A program made the translations under genes and the position numbers. The notes beneath the pieces were generated by a model. It had not been told where the DNA came from. It did not search any database and was given only the letters and a program-made list of their open reading frames with translations. Below are positions 20-60,890 of a stretch of DNA of 64,000 nucleotides, one piece after another. Source of the DNA: Escherichia phage AV108. The DNA lies in sequence record OR352938.1; one strand, 5' to 3'. Positions within the stretch are counted from its first letter, which is position 1. Each line of letters starts with the position of its first letter.

Positions 20-1159
20 ATGACACAAGATATAGAATTACGCAATACTGGAATTAGGTTTGCGCATTTCGACGAAGACTCTGCGACATTTACCAGCATT
101 TCAGAAAATAACTCTGTGATGTATAAGCTGGAAGTGCGCGGATCTAATGCGGATTCTACCAAACCAGCAAGGATTAGATTTAATGGAGTGGAGATCGTTG
201 GCACTGGCTATGAAAATGGCCTAAATTTTAAAGTTCTTACTCCAACTGGACAACTACACGAAGAAAAGGTATTCTATGGTCGCGGTGCTGTTTTGGCAAT
301 GCGTGATTATCTTTCTTTGCTGAAAGGTGACTATATCATTGCGATGGCAACGCATGGAGAATTGTTTGCAGATCCGATCAGTGATGGTGTATTCTCTAAG
401 CTGGGATCTGTATCATTCCCGAATCACATTTTGCTACAGCAAATGCCTCGTGTATCATATGCAGCAATTTATTCTACTAAAATGGGTAAAATTGTGTGCG
501 AAGGGATGCAAGCAACTCACGGGGAAGGACAAGATTCATCTATACAAATTGAGAAAGTCTATGATACTATAGATGATCTTGCTATAACAGGAACACCACA
601 ACGATTTTTAGATTATCCGGTTGAGTATGTTAGCGAAGATGCCGAACATTTCGAGCTAATACAATGGCCTCATGATGAGACCAGCGCCCCACTTGAGGAT
701 TTTAACATAAAGGCAGGTGACAAACTATCAATATCCTTTGAATTGTTCCGTGATAGTGCCGCAGCCGCAGCCAACGTAACAGCGCGTTTCTATCACAACT
801 ACTTCACCGATGGACAATATCAAACTGGTGTTCGATACAATGCCAGCAAAAAAGACCAATGGGAAAAGTTTGAAGCCGTCTATACCGTACCGGAAGGAGT
901 TGATAGTGTAGTAACTGGTTGTATCAGATATCCAACCAACTCCAATGAAGGTATTGTTAAAATTAGAAACATACTAATAACGCCGATCAGTGGAGTCGTC
1001 AAAACTACTGGTCCTACTTCATTTGGTGTTAATGGTGTTAGAACAACTCATATTCAGGATAACGGTGATTTTACTAACCCTGTAATGAGTCTTCTTAAAC
1101 TACCCAGAGATAATAAACACATCACATCCAACAACTTTAAAGAGTTCGATGTTGATTAA
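20..1159 (+). CDS. long tail fiber hinge protein (gp35-like)
   Basis: 379-aa ORF directly upstream of gp36/gp37 homologues; size and position match T4 gene 35; no sequence-level confirmation. Confidence 0.5.
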   Translation: MTQDIELRNTGIRFAHFDEDSATFTSISENNSVMYKLEVRGSNADSTKPARIRFNGVEIVGTGYENGLNFKVLTPTGQLHEEKVFYGRGAVLAMRDYLSLLKGDYIIAMATHGELFADPISDGVFSKLGSVSFPNHILLQQMPRVSYAAIYSTKMGKIVCEGMQATHGEGQDSSIQIEKVYDTIDDLAITGTPQRFLDYPVEYVSEDAEHFELIQWPHDETSAPLEDFNIKAGDKLSISFELFRDSAAAAANVTARFYHNYFTDGQYQTGVRYNASKKDQWEKFEAVYTVPEGVDSVVTGCIRYPTNSNEGIVKIRNILITPISGVVKTTGPTSFGVNGVRTTHIQDNGDFTNPVMSLLKLPRDNKHITSNNFKEFDVD

Positions 1160-1361: not shown

Positions 1362-2852
1362 ATGGCAGATTTGAAATATGGATCTACTGTAGGTGGATCT
1401 CCCATTTGGACGCAAGGAAACTTGACGATCCAGCCAGCGGGGGATCAGCTTTTCTACAAAGGTCATAAAATCTATACCGCTTTTGATAGACCTTCGGCTA
1501 CCGATTTTGATGCTGTTAGTGCATCCGAAGGTGGCACATTTCAAAAGCAAGTTCATTTCGAGGAAGGTTTAAGCGTAGGTAGCGCATCGGCTGGAGAAAC
1601 CAAAAAGAATGGTATCTTTAAAGGTCAGAGCGACGCTGCTAATTTTGACGGCGTAAGCTGGGGTTTGCATTCATGGAAGTCAATCGGCTTTGTTAATGCC
1701 CGTGATGGCGTTATTATGGCGTATATTGACACCACAACGGGCGAATTTAAGTCTAAAGGGACTATCGAAGGGACAACCATTAAAGACACAGGTCAACGTG
1801 TCTATAGCCCTGTTAATAAACCAACGAATAATGATTTGGATTTAGTTTCCCGTCGCGGTGATACTCTCTCAGGAACGTATAATTTAAACACTGTCACTGT
1901 TAAACTATCGGTTGATTCGAAATTAATTGCAAGGGAACGTGATTTAATTAATTTTGATGCGACTAAGATCTATTATGGTAACGTTCTTGATACGTTGGTC
2001 TTCCGAAGTAAAGATGAGCCTACCATTTTTGTTAATGGCAGAGAAGGTCGTTTTTATCACACCAACAATAAACCAACTAAAGACGATGTTGGACTAGGCA
2101 ATGTCACCAATGATGCACAGGTTAAACGTGCTGGTGATATTATGGAAGGTAACTTGCAAGCGCCTAGAATGTTGGCGACAAACGATCCCGCTGGTCCTAA
2201 TGAATTGGTTCGTTTGAGCTACTTTGAGAAAAAATCAATGGTGGCAAATCCAACCATCATTGGAAATGTTGATTGGAACACTCTTATTAATCGCGGTATC
2301 TATCGTGTGGAAAATGCTGGGTCTGGTACTAATAAACCGTCTGATAGCTATTATAACGGCGTTTTGATGGTATATCGCCCAGAAGATGCGGTCGGTACTC
2401 GTCGAATTGTTCAGGTGTATTATCCTGAATCTATTGACCATCCTATGTGCTGGCGTTCGTGTTCTAATGAATCCTGGACTGCATGGAACTATGTAGATCA
2501 CCGTAAATTAGCCGATATTCGCTATGTTAACGTAACTGGCGATACCATGACAGGACCGTTAACTGTTCCGGCTGCAAATGGCGTTAGAACAGCTAAAACT
2601 AACTATAACGGGGATAACTGTTATGCGGCGTTAAGCGGTGCTGATGGTACTGCTATGATTCACCGCATTAGTGATATTAAAGGGACCGAAAAGCTGGGGA
2701 TCACCCACGACTCAAAGGTCGTGTTTTTCCGTTCTAGAAACAATACTCAAACCGTGGACCGCTATCAGCTTTATCATGAAGGTAATAAACCTACTCCGGC
2801 TGATGTTGGAGCGGTTCCACTTAATGCGGTGATTGATTTTGGTACTTTCTAA
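1362..2852 (+). CDS. 36: long tail fiber distal subunit gp36 (enlarged, 496 aa)
   Basis: N-terminus MADLKYGSTVGGSPIWTQGN resembles T4 gp36 start; position between gene 35 and gene 37. Confidence 0.75.
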   Translation: MADLKYGSTVGGSPIWTQGNLTIQPAGDQLFYKGHKIYTAFDRPSATDFDAVSASEGGTFQKQVHFEEGLSVGSASAGETKKNGIFKGQSDAANFDGVSWGLHSWKSIGFVNARDGVIMAYIDTTTGEFKSKGTIEGTTIKDTGQRVYSPVNKPTNNDLDLVSRRGDTLSGTYNLNTVTVKLSVDSKLIARERDLINFDATKIYYGNVLDTLVFRSKDEPTIFVNGREGRFYHTNNKPTKDDVGLGNVTNDAQVKRAGDIMEGNLQAPRMLATNDPAGPNELVRLSYFEKKSMVANPTIIGNVDWNTLINRGIYRVENAGSGTNKPSDSYYNGVLMVYRPEDAVGTRRIVQVYYPESIDHPMCWRSCSNESWTAWNYVDHRKLADIRYVNVTGDTMTGPLTVPAANGVRTAKTNYNGDNCYAALSGADGTAMIHRISDIKGTEKLGITHDSKVVFFRSRNNTQTVDRYQLYHEGNKPTPADVGAVPLNAVIDFGTF

Positions 2853-2857
2853 TTTTA

Positions 2858-2882
2858 GCGGGGATTATCTCCCCGCTTTTCT
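2858..2882 (+). terminator. intrinsic terminator or attenuator between genes 36 and 37
   Basis: Hairpin gcggggattatctccccgc followed by ttttct. Confidence 0.55.
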
Positions 2883-2922
2883 AAATAATATTATTCTAAT
2901 AACCGTTTAAGGATTTTATAAA

Positions 2923-5844
2923 ATGGCAGATTTAAGCAGAATCCAATTTAAACGCACTAGCACTAAAGGTCGTAAACCGGATGCTAGTACGATGAATCCG
3001 GGGGAATTGGCAATCAACCTTGCGGATCAATATCTTCTTACTAAAAATGATTCCGGTGATATTATCAATTTAAGTTGTCCTCCGGTGTATGACCGCGATG
3101 TTACAATGGCGGGTAAGGTTAAAGGTAATAATTATATCTTAAGTAAAACCGCTAACTATCTGGAAGATCAGACAGCGAGAGATCTTAACTACTTTGGCGC
3201 TTTCCGTACCAATGGTCTTGATGGTCTTCTCGAACTCACGCTAAACGTTCCTCACTCTTACGGCGTCCAACATGGTCGAGGATTTACTTTCCAATATGGG
3301 CACACTGGATCGCGTGTAGAAACTTATGGATACAATAAAGAAGGTCAAAAAGCATTTAGCTATAAAATGTATCACGAAGGTGATAAACCTACTCCCTCAG
3401 AATTGAACGTTTATAGCAAACAAGAAATTGACAGAATGTTTATTAAAAACGTTAAAATGTCTGTTCCTTCCGGTGACGCAACTCGTGGTTACTTTAAGAT
3501 CGCGACCGCAATGATTCCTCAGAATAATGGTCGAATGGCATTTTTACGGATTTACGGCGGAAACGGATATAATGTTAACTCCTACGATCAGGTGGAGTTC
3601 CTTGAAATTGTGATTCGTGGTGGTAATAATAACCCTAAAGGTGTTAGTATTGCTGCATATCGTCGTAATTCTTTGAACGTCCATGAAGTATTTGCAATTA
3701 ATACTTCCGGTGATAACTATGACATTTATGTTAACTATGGTCGTTACACCGATAACGTTATTGTAGAGTTTGGAAAAACTGTTGATGTTGCATTGACTGT
3801 TCACGATGTTCCTGAATTTTCGGCGACTAAACCCGCAACCGGAACTAAATTTGATGCTCGTGTTATTACGATGTTCAACACCGAAAACAAAGCCGGAACG
3901 TTGATGTTTGATAATAACGGTCAAGGAACATATGATATTATCAGCTTGAATAACTCGACTGATATCAATAAAAAATATCTTCGTAAGTTTCGTAGCAAAT
4001 CCACAGAAACAATATGGCATGAGGTTGTCGAGGGTAGCGTATATCGTTTAGCTACTGGCGTTACTGATCAGTCAGACCAACTAAAAATTGATTTTAATGG
4101 GGTTACTGTAAATCGTCTTTTCGTTAAGGGAAATAATGCTATCAGAATGGAGCGTAGAGACGGACAAAGTAATTACCTAGAATTTTATGATTATCGTTCC
4201 GGTGCTAACCGCCGTCAAGGTTATCTAGGGTATGGTGACGGTACTACTAACACCGTACAGTTAGTAAATGAATTAACGGAAGGTAATAACTCATTAAGAC
4301 TGGATGATACTGGTCAGGTTACGTTGTCTGTAGGCAAAACAAAAATTGTATATACCAACGGACAATATTATTCCGCTAACTCTGATGCATATCGTATGAT
4401 CTATGGCAATTACGGTGCATTCTGGCGCAATGACGGGACTAAAGTTTATCTTCTTTCCACCGAAGAAAATGACCATTTTGGTGGATGGAACGGCAACCGA
4501 CCATTCATTTACGATTTGACGACTGGTAAAGTTACTTTAGGTGGTGACGGTAACGAAGGTGCATTAGTTCTTGAAAGAGATAGCCGTGCTGCTAGATTTG
4601 CTGGCGACATTTACGTTGGCAAAGGGATGTTAACATTTGATGCCGGACGATTAAATTCTCGTGATTACTTCCGGTTTAACCATTGGGGCGATAGCAATAA
4701 CGCTCGTGATAACATCTTACAGCTTGACGATAGCAAAGGCGCACACTTCACCACTGAACGTACTTTAGCAACTGGTGCAATTAAAACTAAATTCTTCGGT
4801 GATTTGGAATCTGCTGGTCAAATTAAATGGGGTAAAGGGACCGCCACATCTACGTTTACTCTACGTGTATGGGGTAACGATAGTCGTAAACAAATATTTG
4901 AATGCGGCGATGAAAGCGGGTGGCATTGGTATACCCAACGAGCGGGGGGTCCTGGTACAAATGATATTATATTCAATGTTAACGGGAAATTTCAATCTCA
5001 GGGTTTTGAGACTTCCGGTAATATTAAGATAACTGGTCCAGACCTTGAGTTTCGTCGCACTGGTAATAAGCATATCTGGTTTAGAGATCCAAACGGCTTA
5101 GAGTTAGGCGTGATGTACTGCGATGATGCTGGTGCTATTCGCTTCCGTGGTCAGAAACAAGCCCAGTCGTGGAAATTTGCAGATAAAATGATCCAGTTGG
5201 AATCTGGTACTGTATCCGGTGGCGGTAATGGCCTGATTCGTGGTGAAGTTGCTGGCGGTAGTTGGGCTAGCTGGCGTGACCGTGCTGCTGGCCTTATGGT
5301 TGGGTGTCCTCAATCAACCAATTCCGCTCATAACATCTGGAAAGCTACTCATTGGGGTAAATATCACATCGCAGCAATGGGTGTACACGTTCCTAGCGGT
5401 ACTATCGGTAATGCTATAGCTCGCCTAAACGTTCATGACGCCAACTTTGACTTTAGCGCCTCCGGTGACATGTCGGCAGGGCGTAACGGTTCGTTTAACG
5501 ATGTGTACATTCGTTCTGATGCTCGCCTGAAAATCAATAAGGAAGAGTATAAAGAGAATGCCACCGATAAAGTTAATCGCTTGACGGTATACACCTATGA
5601 CAAGGTTAAATCTTTAACCGACCGTACTGTCATTGCTCATGAAGTTGGTATTATTGCTCAGGATCTTGAAAAAGAATTGCCGGAAGCCGTAACAACTTCT
5701 AAGATCGGAGATCCAGATAATCCAGAAGAGATCTTAACAATTTCTAACTCTGCTGTCAACGCTCTTTTAATTAAGGCGTTTCAGGAAATGAGCGAAGAAT
5801 TGAAAGCCGTTAAAGCTGAACTAGCGGAACTTAAAAAGAATTAA
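2923..5844 (+). CDS. 37: long tail fiber large distal subunit gp37 with C-terminal intramolecular chaperone domain
   Basis: 973 aa; N-terminus IQFKRTSTKGRKPDAS...GELAINL resembles T4 gp37; C-terminus SDARLKINKEE...GIIAQDLEKEL...coiled coil resembles S74-type self-cleaving chaperone. Confidence 0.85.
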   Translation: MADLSRIQFKRTSTKGRKPDASTMNPGELAINLADQYLLTKNDSGDIINLSCPPVYDRDVTMAGKVKGNNYILSKTANYLEDQTARDLNYFGAFRTNGLDGLLELTLNVPHSYGVQHGRGFTFQYGHTGSRVETYGYNKEGQKAFSYKMYHEGDKPTPSELNVYSKQEIDRMFIKNVKMSVPSGDATRGYFKIATAMIPQNNGRMAFLRIYGGNGYNVNSYDQVEFLEIVIRGGNNNPKGVSIAAYRRNSLNVHEVFAINTSGDNYDIYVNYGRYTDNVIVEFGKTVDVALTVHDVPEFSATKPATGTKFDARVITMFNTENKAGTLMFDNNGQGTYDIISLNNSTDINKKYLRKFRSKSTETIWHEVVEGSVYRLATGVTDQSDQLKIDFNGVTVNRLFVKGNNAIRMERRDGQSNYLEFYDYRSGANRRQGYLGYGDGTTNTVQLVNELTEGNNSLRLDDTGQVTLSVGKTKIVYTNGQYYSANSDAYRMIYGNYGAFWRNDGTKVYLLSTEENDHFGGWNGNRPFIYDLTTGKVTLGGDGNEGALVLERDSRAARFAGDIYVGKGMLTFDAGRLNSRDYFRFNHWGDSNNARDNILQLDDSKGAHFTTERTLATGAIKTKFFGDLESAGQIKWGKGTATSTFTLRVWGNDSRKQIFECGDESGWHWYTQRAGGPGTNDIIFNVNGKFQSQGFETSGNIKITGPDLEFRRTGNKHIWFRDPNGLELGVMYCDDAGAIRFRGQKQAQSWKFADKMIQLESGTVSGGGNGLIRGEVAGGSWASWRDRAAGLMVGCPQSTNSAHNIWKATHWGKYHIAAMGVHVPSGTIGNAIARLNVHDANFDFSASGDMSAGRNGSFNDVYIRSDARLKINKEEYKENATDKVNRLTVYTYDKVKSLTDRTVIAHEVGIIAQDLEKELPEAVTTSKIGDPDNPEEILTISNSAVNALLIKAFQEMSEELKAVKAELAELKKN

Positions 5845-5885
5845 GGAAAATCCCAGGGAAGGGAAACTACTAAGGAGAAACGGCT

Positions 5886-6125
5886 ATGGTCTATAATATC
5901 GTCATTGGTGCTTTGTCTAGTTTCGGAATGAAACTATTATCAAAGTTAATTAGTGAAAAGATGCTCACTAAAATTTTCTTCTATTGCGCTCGTCGTCTTG
6001 CGGCCTATACCAATACGCCAATTGATGATCGTTTCGTGGAAGAACTTTATAAGGAGTTTAATAAAGATCAGTCAGAAGATAGTAACGAGCAAGATAAACC
6101 TAGTGATAGTCAAGTACCTAAATAA
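5886..6125 (+). CDS. hypothetical small protein in the position normally held by gp38
   Basis: 79-aa ORF with hydrophobic N-terminus and acidic C-terminus; no similarity to gp38 seen. Confidence 0.3.
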   Translation: MVYNIVIGALSSFGMKLLSKLISEKMLTKIFFYCARRLAAYTNTPIDDRFVEELYKEFNKDQSEDSNEQDKPSDSQVPK

Positions 6126-6158
6126 GAGTACACTGTCATAGTTATCTTAGGGCATTAT

Positions 6159-6815
6159 ATGCAAGTTTCTGAAAAAGGGAAAGACTTTGCTATCTCAAAT
6201 GTCCTGCGCGCTATTTTCACAACTAAAAGCACGGAGTTGCTCGTACTTCGTGTTTTTGCTGCCGTCGTGTTGTCCATATTGGCATTTGTCGTTTATAGTA
6301 AAAACGAGTTATTTGCGCTTTATAAAGAGACTCGTTATGAGACTTATGCTCACATTCTCCAGGTAGAGAAAGACCGCAATTTTGATAATGCAGCACAGGA
6401 GCAGTTACAGATAGTTCATGTGTCGGCTGATGCCGATTTTTCTGCTGTTTTTAGTTTTCGTCCGAAAAACCTAAACTATTTTGTTGATTTGGTGGCATAT
6501 GAAGGAAAGCTACCGCATACAATCGATGAAAAAAATTTAGGCGGATTCCCTATCAATAAAACGAGTGAAGAATATCGTAGGCATCTTTTAGGTAAATCAT
6601 ATTTTACCGATAAAGATTTCCAGTATATTCCATCAAGAGAAAAGAAATTAGAGAATATCGATATAGGTTTCATGTATTCTTGTCCTATATTCAATCTCGA
6701 TAATGTCTATTCTGGTAGTATCGCCATTTCATGGAAGAATAAACCGGATATTGACATTGAGAATTTAGATACTCTTTGCAATCAATCTGCCAGAATCCTC
6801 GGAAGGATTAGATAA
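6159..6815 (+). CDS. t: holin T
   Basis: 218 aa, single N-terminal TM; strong match to T4 holin (LEQLQIVHVSADADFSAVFSFRPKNLNYFVDLVAYEGKLP). Confidence 0.9.
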   Translation: MQVSEKGKDFAISNVLRAIFTTKSTELLVLRVFAAVVLSILAFVVYSKNELFALYKETRYETYAHILQVEKDRNFDNAAQEQLQIVHVSADADFSAVFSFRPKNLNYFVDLVAYEGKLPHTIDEKNLGGFPINKTSEEYRRHLLGKSYFTDKDFQYIPSREKKLENIDIGFMYSCPIFNLDNVYSGSIAISWKNKPDIDIENLDTLCNQSARILGRIR

Positions 6816-59694: not shown

Positions 59695-59722
59695 ATTATA
59701 GCATTGTGATTATCTTTGTCAA
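59695..59722 (-). promoter_or_regulatory. sigma70-type early promoter
   Basis: TTGACA-N16-TATAAT directly downstream of a terminator. Confidence 0.55.
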
Positions 59723-59726
59723 CACC

Positions 59727-59760
59727 CAAAAACAAAAAAAGGCTACCCCGAAGGATAGCC
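59727..59760 (-). terminator. intrinsic terminator after the gp38-like gene
   Basis: ggctatcc-ttcg-gggtagcc hairpin followed by a long T-run on the leftward strand. Confidence 0.55.
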
Positions 59761-59768
59761 CATAAAAA

Positions 59769-60545
59769 TTACACGCGAGCACCGTAGATCGTGCCTACTT
59801 TATCCCAGCGAGGGGCATTGCCAGTAACAGCCTTACCAGCCGCTCCGCCATTATACTCTGTACCGTTCCCCTGAGTATTACATCTTCCTCCAGCAGCACC
59901 AACGTTACCGCCCGCACCGCCTGTATATGCACTAAGAGACCCCGAACCAACAGATCCTTTACCCGGAGCGGAAATGGAGCCAGCGGTTGCACCAGAACCC
60001 ATATTAGAGGAAGACCCGGCAGCACCGAATGGGCGACCACCGCCACCACCAAATACTAGTCGACCCCTGTTACCTCCACCGCCGCCACCGCCGCCACCAG
60101 CGATAGCACCGTTATTTGTAATTCGTAGACGTGTACCGATAGCGTTATTGATTGCGTTTCCACCAGCAGCGCCAGCAGCGTTACTACCACCATTACCCCC
60201 ACGTCCGTAGACAGTCACACCGGAGTTAATGATCAATGTTACATATTCGTTTGTTAACGAGCTAGGGAAGTCAAGACAAGGAACGCCAGTAGATTGGGAA
60301 ACAATATCACCCGTGATAGTAATTACTACAGGAGTAGATCCTTGTGCTTTCATCCAGTTAATAAGAGTGTCTTTATTGTAAGAGTTACTAGCACCAATGC
60401 TATAATGAATCTCTTTAGAGCGTCCGACCATTGCCGACATATACGCCGGACGACCTAAGCGTACAGCTTGCATTGCGGCGCTCATCCACCGTTGACCAGT
60501 CTCGGACACAGCAGATGATCCTACCCATCCAGAAGATATTGCCAT
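59769..60545 (-). CDS. glycine-rich protein resembling gp38-type tail fiber adhesin
   Basis: 258 aa; N-terminal GWVGSSAVSETGQRWMS-type segment then several glycine-rich motifs (GRGGNGGSN, GGGGGGGGGNRG, GGGGGRPFGAAG, GGAGGNVGAAGG) separated by short variable stretches; GAGGAA RBS. Confidence 0.5.
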   Translation of the reverse strand: MAISSGWVGSSAVSETGQRWMSAAMQAVRLGRPAYMSAMVGRSKEIHYSIGASNSYNKDTLINWMKAQGSTPVVITITGDIVSQSTGVPCLDFPSSLTNEYVTLIINSGVTVYGRGGNGGSNAAGAAGGNAINNAIGTRLRITNNGAIAGGGGGGGGGNRGRLVFGGGGGRPFGAAGSSSNMGSGATAGSISAPGKGSVGSGSLSAYTGGAGGNVGAAGGRCNTQGNGTEYNGGAAGKAVTGNAPRWDKVGTIYGARV

Positions 60546-60599: not shown

Positions 60600-60821
60600 T
60601 TAGATGATCTCTGCTTCACCATTCAGGAAGAAAGACCATGTTTTGTTAGGATAGCGAAGCGCCCATGATTCAGCAGTTTTAACACCCGCTTCGAACAATT
60701 GACGGCTGGTTACTTTAGCCATACCATCGAAGATGGCAACGTTTTCAATAATCATCGGGTACTTAGCGCCACGCATGAAACCGAAACCAGCGGAAGATTT
60801 GATAATTTTAACAGTTGCCAT
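60600..60821 (-). CDS. hypothetical protein
   Basis: About 73 aa from MATVKIIKSS with AGGAGA RBS; immediately upstream of the gp38-like gene. Confidence 0.4.
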   Translation of the reverse strand: MATVKIIKSSAGFGFMRGAKYPMIIENVAIFDGMAKVTSRQLFEAGVKTAESWALRYPNKTWSFFLNGEAEII

Positions 60822-60862
60822 TTTGATTCTCCTAGAAAGTGTATCTCGTTTCGATGGGTGTA

Positions 60863-60890
60863 TTATGCAATAACACCGGATCGCTGTCAA
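60863..60890 (-). promoter_or_regulatory. sigma70-type early promoter
   Basis: TTGACA-N16-CATAAT; ggtgt/acacc inverted repeat around the -10; GATC in spacer. Confidence 0.5.

Follow-up and report, generated by a model that had tools for sequence, protein, structure and literature searches.

The long tail fibre of Escherichia phage AV108 is very probably of the RB49 type, in which a gp37 bearing a C-terminal Peptidase_S74 (S74) domain is capped by a gp38 adhesin encoded at a displaced locus, and we are equally confident that its tip is of the kind seen in T2/T6/S16, from which the gene order departs in a single respect, already known and specific to the genus. The analysed stretch (hereafter the window) comprises 64,000 nucleotides of record OR352938.1. 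The source phage is RB49-like (genus Krischvirus); its fibre region matches 86 Krischvirus-type records, with a top nucleotide identity of 93%, and shares with RB49 the order 35-36-37-79-aa ORF-t. The overall arrangement is ordinary and has already been described for RB49-like (Krischvirus) coliphages, and the case of AV108 leaves the current understanding of fibre assembly unchanged. The features of the fibre region are:

20..1159, + strand: gene 35 homologue, proximal connector/hinge, 379 aa (phrog_1154, E 4.8e-126; syntenic with RB49p249)
1321-1328: perfect late-promoter box TATAAATA 5' of gene 36
1362..2852, + strand: gene 36 homologue, distal fibre connector, 496 aa (phrog_16472 over the full length; phrog_1425, E 3.5e-54; syntenic with RB49p250)
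2923..5844, + strand: gene 37, distal subunit precursor, 973 aa, about 108 kDa (phrog_1699, E 1e-188)
2923..5514, + strand: aa 1-864 of gp37 as the predicted mature protein, about 96 kDa, with the C-terminal end ...GSFNDVYIR (from the position of SDARLK)
5512..5517, + strand: predicted scissile bond Arg864-Ser865 (invariant Ser/Asp/Lys; correspondence with T5 pb1)
5515..5841, + strand: intramolecular chaperone (Peptidase_S74/ICA), aa 865-973, 109 aa, about 12 kDa (PF13884)
5886..6125, + strand: 79-aa ORF in the slot occupied by g38 in T2/T6 (phrog_402, E 5.5e-20; RB49p252/Dc5)
6159..6815, + strand: holin t (Phage_holin_T, 206.7 bits)

gp37 does end in a genuine intramolecular chaperone domain of the Peptidase_S74 family, as the initial annotation had suspected from the resemblance of its C-terminus to such domains. 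The domain occupies the extreme C-terminus of the gp37 homologue (aa 865-973 of 973), and the profile search with PF13884 matched aa 865-924 with 45.0 bits (E 1.4e-11) when the whole protein was used and with 48.8 bits when the C-terminal 146 aa were used alone, in both cases well above the gathering score of 22. The same family is present in 35 out of 35 database homologues of the gp37 C-terminus, and Ser865, Asp866 and Lys870 are invariant among 24 homologues. All three segments on which the original assignment was based (SDARLKINKEE, TVYTYDKVKSL, GIIAQDLEKEL) occur in gp37, as does the terminal helix. The AF2 monomer model, with pLDDT of 84-94 across the chaperone domain, comprises the elements H121-127, E130-136, E144-151, E164-181 and H183-213, and predicts an alpha/beta unit, a beta-hairpin "tentacle" and a long C-terminal coiled-coil helix. 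The top Foldseek matches of this model are all ICA/IMC structures, i.e. those of the MyRF ICA and of the GA-1 and K1F chaperones: 7DC3 (E 4e-5, prob 1.0, TM(target) 0.71), 3GUD (prob 1.0) and 3GW6. The S16 gp37 chain (6F45_A) was matched in phmmer by the C-terminal fragment only (E 8e-5).

The Ser of the SDARLK motif is residue 865 (nt 5515-5517), with Lys870 at position Ser+5, and therefore the predicted released part comprises 109 aa (Ser865-Asn973): the chaperone had been located correctly, but its size was overestimated at about 130 residues. Because the domain is real, Ser865 and Lys870 are invariant and the fold matches, autoproteolytic release after trimerisation would be the expected maturation step. 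The cleavage motif reads DVYIR^SDARLK here, and the DVYIR^SD junction is also found in T6 gp37 and, by alignment to the experimentally defined S16 site, in T2-like fPS phages (PMC7917993). In T5 pb1 the corresponding residues are Ser1264 and Lys1269, and the chain is cut on the N-terminal side of the Ser (PMC4690869). RB49 gp37 has been reported to possess a self-cleaving chaperone domain (PMC9569957). Domains of this family also make use of an Arg/Asp "folding sensor" located upstream, which the adjacent chain of the trimer contributes. A MAFFT run that included K1F endoNF and a T5-like fibre misplaced their Ser motifs and was excluded from the residue assignment.

As for the remainder of gp37, phrog_1699 carries the PHROGs label "long tail fiber distal subunit", the Pfam family Gp34_trimer is matched with 102 bits, and a phmmer search of PDB with the whole protein matched gp34 and Mu/S-fibre shafts only. 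In Pfam, gp37 shows no match to the tip domains PF20744 and PF12604 (gp37_trimer/gp37_C), for which a Suspvirus fibre used as a positive control scored 174 and 84 bits, respectively, or to other tip-domain families. The protein exhibits 84% amino acid identity to RB49 gp37, with a divergent block in the shaft (aa about 370-470), while its final roughly 400 residues are almost identical. The nearest nucleotide relative of gene 37 is found in phage FL37 (93%).

A single copy of g38 is present in the window, in the following context:

60890-60862, - strand: sigma70-like promoter 5' of the 73-aa ORF
60821-60600, - strand: 73-aa ORF directly upstream of g38 (homologue of RB49p080)
59769..60545, - strand: gene 38, T2/T6/S16-type adhesin, 258 aa, about 26 kDa (GP38, Gp38_N, 6F45_D)
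59761-59740, - strand: stem-loop terminator directly after g38 (PeSL-type motif)
59722-59695, - strand: perfect sigma70 promoter TTGACA-N16-TATAAT after that terminator (PeSL-type motif)

Judged by its sequence, this gp38 is a complete T2/T6/S16-type adhesin with an N-terminal gp37-attachment domain. GP38 (PF05268, 242.9 bits) and Gp38_N (PF21721, 65.6 bits) are both matched over their full length, and among PDB entries 6F45_D is matched across residues 1-256 (E 1.4e-49) and 9V85 with E 2e-35. Glycine makes up 22.9% of the protein, in which glycine-rich motifs alternate with variable segments; five such motifs, one of them GGGGGGGGG at 150-158, align to those of S16 gp38. Among the three Trp prongs of the N-terminal helical bundle, by which adhesins of this type insert into gp37, W7 and W20 are conserved, and the third one (W36 in S16, also Trp in T6) is replaced by Tyr35 both here and in RB49. 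The protein is 56% identical to T6 gp38 and 98% identical to RB49 gp38 (RB49p079), from which it differs by five substitutions (e.g. S201 instead of E201) with E230 and Y231 retained; it is 98-99% conserved among relatives, the nearest being that of phage ELT3 (99.2% at the amino acid level). RB49 uses gp38 for receptor binding, its reported receptors being OmpA and certain O antigens, and the host-range mutations E230K/Y231S map to this protein (Efimov 2022, PMC9569957).

The gene is located 53.9 kb from gene 37, on the opposite, early-transcribed strand near rI/tk, i.e. away from its canonical locus. In the part of Trojet 2011 (PMC3157838) that cites Desplats 2002, RB49 is likewise described as having a displaced g38 with a small ORF in its place. 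We found the displaced locus in at least 54 records that cover at least 80% of the 56-64 kb region. Displacement of g38 is a property of the locus and not of the protein family, and represents the known Krischvirus arrangement. The ORF is intact, with a good Shine-Dalgarno sequence (GAGGA), and is probably co-transcribed with the 73-aa ORF. No late-promoter box TATAAATA was found within 2.5 kb upstream of g38; the closest one (63131-63124) precedes rI, and a terminator intervenes. Motifs of the PeSL type have been described for RB49/phi1 (PMC4122927). It is conceivable, although rather unlikely, that g38 was transferred from the late tail-fibre operon to a two-gene cassette on the early strand (early promoter, 73-aa ORF, g38 and PeSL), which would act as a mobile unit of host range and be swapped through PeSL-mediated recombination, a reading that is consistent with the data insofar as gp38 and gp37 have different nearest relatives. 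If it held, the adhesin would be under early or middle control and made ahead of the fibre it caps, and the co-transcribed 73-aa ORF might be a gp38-specific helper.

T4 gp38 is a folding chaperone unrelated to the T2/T6 adhesin of the same name, and the initial annotation, which opposed self-cleavage to gp38-assisted folding, merged these two proteins. Its statement that gp38 is missing from the canonical locus holds as worded: a tblastn search with gp38 from the window and T6 gp38 (E up to 10) revealed no remnant or second copy in the gap between genes 37 and t. It does not hold as a claim of absence, as the same search gave a single match in the window, at 59772-60545 within g38 on the - strand. 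Similarly, there is indeed no T4-type gp38 after gene 37, but the adhesin gp38 is present. As stated originally, the sole ORF between gene 37 and t is the unrelated 79-aa one (5886-6125), which has a hydrophobic helix at the N-terminus and an acidic tail, and shows no match to Pfam or NCBIfam families, including those of chaperones. In other phage groups its homologues adjoin holin or endolysin genes (e.g. the Vibrio homologue sits after a GH108 endolysin), and the Suspvirus homologue neighbours a fibre of the T4 gp37_C type. A role of this protein as a fibre chaperone or adhesin was considered and rejected, given the lack of such family matches and homologues that are not tied to S74-bearing fibres. 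It represents neither kind of gp38 and is probably lysis-associated.

Based on homologues and the literature, we propose that the C-terminal 109-aa Peptidase_S74 chaperone of the 973-aa gp37 precursor would make the distal shaft trimerise and fold and that, once the trimer has folded, Ser865 activated by Lys870 would cut the Arg864-Ser865 bond and release the chaperone. This would expose ...GSFNDVYIR, the predicted gp38 docking end of the mature trimer, for capping by one gp38 molecule, with the conserved N-terminal helical attachment domain of gp38 plugging into gp37 and its "polyglycine sandwich" with variable loops binding the host receptor. Three observations speak against this scheme: Tyr35 in place of the third Trp prong, the lack of alignment between the more upstream part of gp37 and its S16 counterpart, and the position of g38 on the early strand with no late promoter recognised nearby, whereas gp37 is expressed late. 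In the T6 control gp37 carries an S74 domain and gp38 is encoded next to it; by this analogy a gp37 with an S74 domain is what normally accompanies an adhesin-type gp38, and the chaperone domain and gp38 would be partners and not alternatives.

The initial annotation placed the receptor-binding tip in gp37 itself, in the manner of T5 pb1 or the endosialidases and with no gp38 involved. The S74 domain is real, the gap between genes 37 and t is without gp38, and removal of the chaperone in T5 pb1 unmasks that protein's own tip (PMC4690869), all of which would fit such a fibre. We nonetheless regard it as highly improbable, since a full-length, conserved gp38 with a gp37-attachment domain is encoded at 59769-60545, the end of gp37 matches those of the gp38-capped T6 and T2-like fibres, gp37 shows no Pfam match to gp37_C or another tip domain, and in RB49 the host-range mutations fall in a gp38 that is 98% identical to the one found here (PMC9569957). 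A less radical version, in which the gp38 cap is supplemented by aa about 700-864 of mature gp37 contacting e.g. an O antigen, so that both proteins shape the host range, is very unlikely. It would account for the binding of several O antigens and OmpA by RB49-like phages, regarded by the authors as "counter-intuitive" for a small adhesin (PMC9569957), and for the mosaic character of gp37 among close relatives in which gp38 is nearly identical. However, the divergent block of gp37 lies in the shaft and not at the tip, the final roughly 400 residues hardly differ from RB49, and host-range mutations have been mapped only to gp38 (PMC9569957).

Finally, the early-type promoter ahead of g38 and the lack of a late promoter nearby could indicate that the displaced gene is mistimed and vestigial, or else the S74 domain might be retained uncleaved. 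We attach a negligible probability to these possibilities, given the invariance of the catalytic Ser/Lys pair, an intact g38 whose Shine-Dalgarno sequence is good and whose conservation among relatives is 98-99%, and the demonstration that gp38 determines the host range of RB49 (PMC9569957). The RB49-type fibre capped by gp38 thus remains the preferred reading, in which gp38 would be the host-range determinant, as suggested by its homologues and published data. Since the adhesin is present and the RB49 host-range mutations lie in gp38, host range should be predicted from gp38 and not from the gp37 tip, and the 98% identity to RB49 gp38, with its reported OmpA and O-antigen receptors, provides a concrete lead. 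In the annotation of Krischvirus genomes, the receptor-binding protein should be sought at the rI/tk locus and not downstream of gene 37; checking the canonical slot alone leads to gp37 being wrongly called the receptor-binding protein.

Comparison with known systems places AV108 closest to RB49 (gp37 NP_891822, gp38 NP_891650), which has the same order 35-36-37-79-aa ORF-t and likewise carries g38 close to rI/tk, on the opposite strand. The differences comprise the divergent shaft block of gp37 and the five gp38 substitutions, and the best relatives, FL37 for gene 37 and ELT3 for gp38, indicate that AV108 is not RB49 itself but a mosaic relative. T4 gp37, with its chaperones gp38 and gp57A, has a homologous N-terminus and shaft modules and the same position in the fibre, but it possesses its own receptor-binding tip (gp37_C) and lacks the S74 domain; neither such a tip nor a T4-type gp38 was found here. 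T5 pb1 and K1F endosialidase (4UW8, 3GW6) share with AV108 the chaperone family, the Ser nucleophile, the Lys at +5 and, as predicted here, release once the trimer has formed, but there receptor binding or cleavage is performed by the matured protein itself, whereas here a separate adhesin would cap the end. In Salmonella phage S16 the release of the chaperone exposes the docking surface of gp38, and the structure of its gp37-gp38 tip complex (PDB 6F45) was reportedly determined by Dunne et al. in 2018. The gp38 of this complex can be aligned over the full length (E 1e-49), and the chaperone junction, S^SD in S16 versus R^SD here, is at the same place; on the other hand, g38 adjoins g37 in S16 and is displaced here, the third attachment Trp is a Tyr here, and ahead of the cleavage site the two gp37 sequences align over roughly 20 residues, with no alignment further upstream. 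In T6 the C-terminal 155 aa of gp37 are 53% identical to those of AV108, including the DVYIR^SD junction, and in T2/T6 the Pfam architecture of both gp37 and gp38 is as here, the location of g38 being the sole difference.

Analysis of the tail fibre genes indicates that the receptor-binding protein of phage AV108 is a displaced gp38 and not the tip of gp37. Gene 37 itself lies in the following block:

20-1159, gene 35 homologue, upstream of gene 37
1362-2852 (+), gene 36 homologue, 496 aa, upstream of gene 37
2923-5844 (+), gene 37, long tail fibre distal subunit, 973 aa (PHROGs phrog_1699, E 1e-188)
5886-6125 (+), 79-aa ORF, downstream of gene 37 (phrog_402)
6159-6815, holin t, downstream of gene 37 (Phage_holin_T, 207 bits)

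Roughly double the size of T4 gp36, the gene 36 homologue scores below threshold with Pfam Phage_T4_gp36 (21 bits vs a cut-off of 26), and its first ~60 residues resemble the N-terminal ends found in several PHROG families of the gp37 type.

The features of gp37 named in the initial annotation are real and were correctly placed, and its assignment of the C-terminus to the intramolecular chaperone (ICA) family agrees with Pfam, with invariant Ser, Asp and Lys residues and with the predicted fold. Peptidase_S74 ("chaperone of endosialidase", PF13884) matches residues 865-924 with 45 bits and the C-terminal fragment alone with 48.8 bits, above the Pfam gathering score of 22. The SDARLK motif begins at Ser865 (nt 5515-5517), which gives a chaperone part of 109 residues rather than the ~130 originally proposed; the predicted mature gp37 has 864 aa (~96 kDa). 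For the last 214 residues, all 35 homologues found in the database contain PF13884, and 24 of these, when aligned, show no variation at Ser865, Asp866 or Lys870. The Ser865...Lys870 spacing equals that of T5 pb1, where the scissile bond is Thr1263-Ser1264, with Ser1264 as the nucleophile and Lys1269 at +5 as the activating residue (PMC4690869). For residues 760-973, AlphaFold2 yields a model with pLDDT 84-94 across the chaperone part and a terminal helix of 31 residues. The model's top Foldseek matches in the PDB belong exclusively to this family, namely the MyRF ICA domain (7DC3, E 4e-5, probability 1.0, TM 0.71 on target), followed by the chaperones of the GA-1 neck appendage (3GUD) and K1F endosialidase (3GW6), and the S16 gp37 construct 6F45_A aligns with the domain in phmmer (E 8e-5). 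By analogy with these proteins, autoprocessing of gp37 by its chaperone domain is expected.

The receptor-binding tip had also been assigned to gp37 itself. However, a composition scan of all ORFs in the window singled out one (22.9% glycine) that encodes a full adhesin:

59769-60545 (-), g38, gp38 adhesin, 258 aa (Pfam GP38 and Gp38_N)

Both Pfam families, GP38 ("phage tail fibre adhesin Gp38", 242.9 bits) and Gp38_N (65.6 bits), match end to end, and the protein is similar to the S16 adhesin (PDB 6F45 chain D, E 1.4e-49, residues 1-256) and to gp38 of PP01 (9V85, E 2e-35). These matches indicate that the phage possesses gp38, ~54 kb from gene 37; no second gp38-like sequence was found anywhere in the window. 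Gp38 attaches via an N-terminal three-helix bundle bearing Trp prongs (PMC6851490), two of three being conserved here (W7, W20), with Tyr35 at the third position, as in RB49.

The region matches RB49-like phages of the genus Krischvirus (megablast; best FL37, 93%). RB49 has the same gene order, 35-36-37-79-aa ORF (RB49p252/Dc5)-t, and its g38 (RB49p079, "similar to T2 and RB69 gp38 adhesin") is carried by the opposite strand, in the vicinity of rI.-1, rI and tk. The 8-kb region around g38 is covered to at least 80% in at least 54 phage records. The fibre is mosaic: gp38 is 98-99% identical to its counterparts in RB49 (98%, 253/258) and ELT3, but gp37 and its RB49 counterpart share only 84% identity and diverge in a block at aa ~370-470, and gene 37 is closest to FL37 (93% nt), so that shaft and adhesin differ in nearest relative. 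RB49 host-range mutants carry gp38 E230K, or E230K and Y231S (PMC9569957); both E230 and Y231 occupy corresponding positions here. A 2025 study noted that gp38 is not near the holin in FL37 and FL38 (PMC12032242). Phage Brandy shares the 37-small ORF-t arrangement, and its record (MZ504876.1, 2501-5430) has gene 37 annotated in the form of two CDSs that overlap (2501-4138 and 4084-5430), pointing to a frameshift or an error of sequencing in the deposited entry. In a 303-aa called protein of an "E. coli" record (P0034), PF13884 of the chaperone domain is combined with the gp38 families PF05268 and PF21721; this is probably a gp37 end merged with an adjacent gp38 by gene call or frameshift.

Perfect TTGACA-N16-18-TATAAT promoters occur nine times in the window (0.13 expected by chance), all on the strand that carries g38; their positions and the neighbors of g38 are as follows:

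15133, 17091, 18075, 31242, 33970, 49069, 51574, 56944, 59695 (-), perfect TTGACA-N16-18-TATAAT promoters
59695-59761 (-), strong stem-loop terminator and perfect TTGACA-N16-TATAAT promoter, directly after g38
60600-60890 (-), sigma70-like promoter and 73-aa ORF, preceding g38

Judged from sequence, g38 and the 73-aa ORF form a putative two-gene unit behind the sigma70-like promoter. The terminator-promoter after g38 is a PeSL-type motif; motifs of this type were proposed as mediators of cassette shuffling in RB49/phi1 (PMC4122927). Across the window just two perfect late boxes (TATAAATA) occur, one before gene 36 (1321-1328, +) and one before rI (63131-63124, -); none lies within 2.5 kb upstream of g38, although the gene has a late function.

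The 79-aa ORF has a hydrophobic N-terminal helix and an acidic tail, and its homologues, found in 387 phage records, carry precomputed PF26925. In Felixounavirus/Suspvirus they are flanked by a tail fibre gene of the T4-gp37_C type and an annotated holin; in Vibrio phages they come directly after a GH108 endolysin, and in Aeromonas LAh_8 after a tail-needle knob. The fibre and endolysin neighbors indicate that the occurrence of this ORF does not depend on S74 fibres; it may encode a small membrane protein associated with lysis.

Domain identities, catalytic-residue conservation, the predicted fold, the intactness of g38 including the attachment domain, and the genus-wide conservation of the arrangement were computed here; by extension from homologues, the chaperone would drive trimer folding of gp37, the Arg864-Ser865 bond would be cut with release of a 12-kDa fragment, the exposed end would be capped by one gp38, and gp38 loops would bind the receptor. 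In the literature we found an experimental demonstration of gp37 cleavage for no Krischvirus. The initial annotation was thus sound regarding the chaperone domain, the expected autoprocessing and the lack of a T4-type gp38 chaperone, but wrong on host range, since receptor binding is predicted to reside in the displaced gp38 and not in the gp37 tip; its single "gp38" conflated the T4 folding chaperone with the unrelated T2/T6 adhesin.

The chaperone domain and the gp38 adhesin are partners, and an S74-bearing gp37 predicts an adhesin-type gp38 rather than excluding gp38. In a control scan, T6 gp37 has the same architecture (Gp34_trimer and C-terminal Peptidase_S74), and the adjoining gene 38 carries GP38 and Gp38_N; identity to the AV108 proteins is 53% over the last 155 residues of gp37 and 56% for gp38, and both gp37 proteins share the junction GSF[NS]DVYIR^SD. 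In S16, the last 113 residues of gp37 (the chaperone) are reportedly autocleaved after trimerisation between the two serines of DLNVS^SDRRIKK, a site that aligns to DVYIR^SDGRLKI of T2-like phages (PMC7917993); the predicted site here is DVYIR^SDARLKI. The arrangement as a whole has already been described for RB49 and its relatives.
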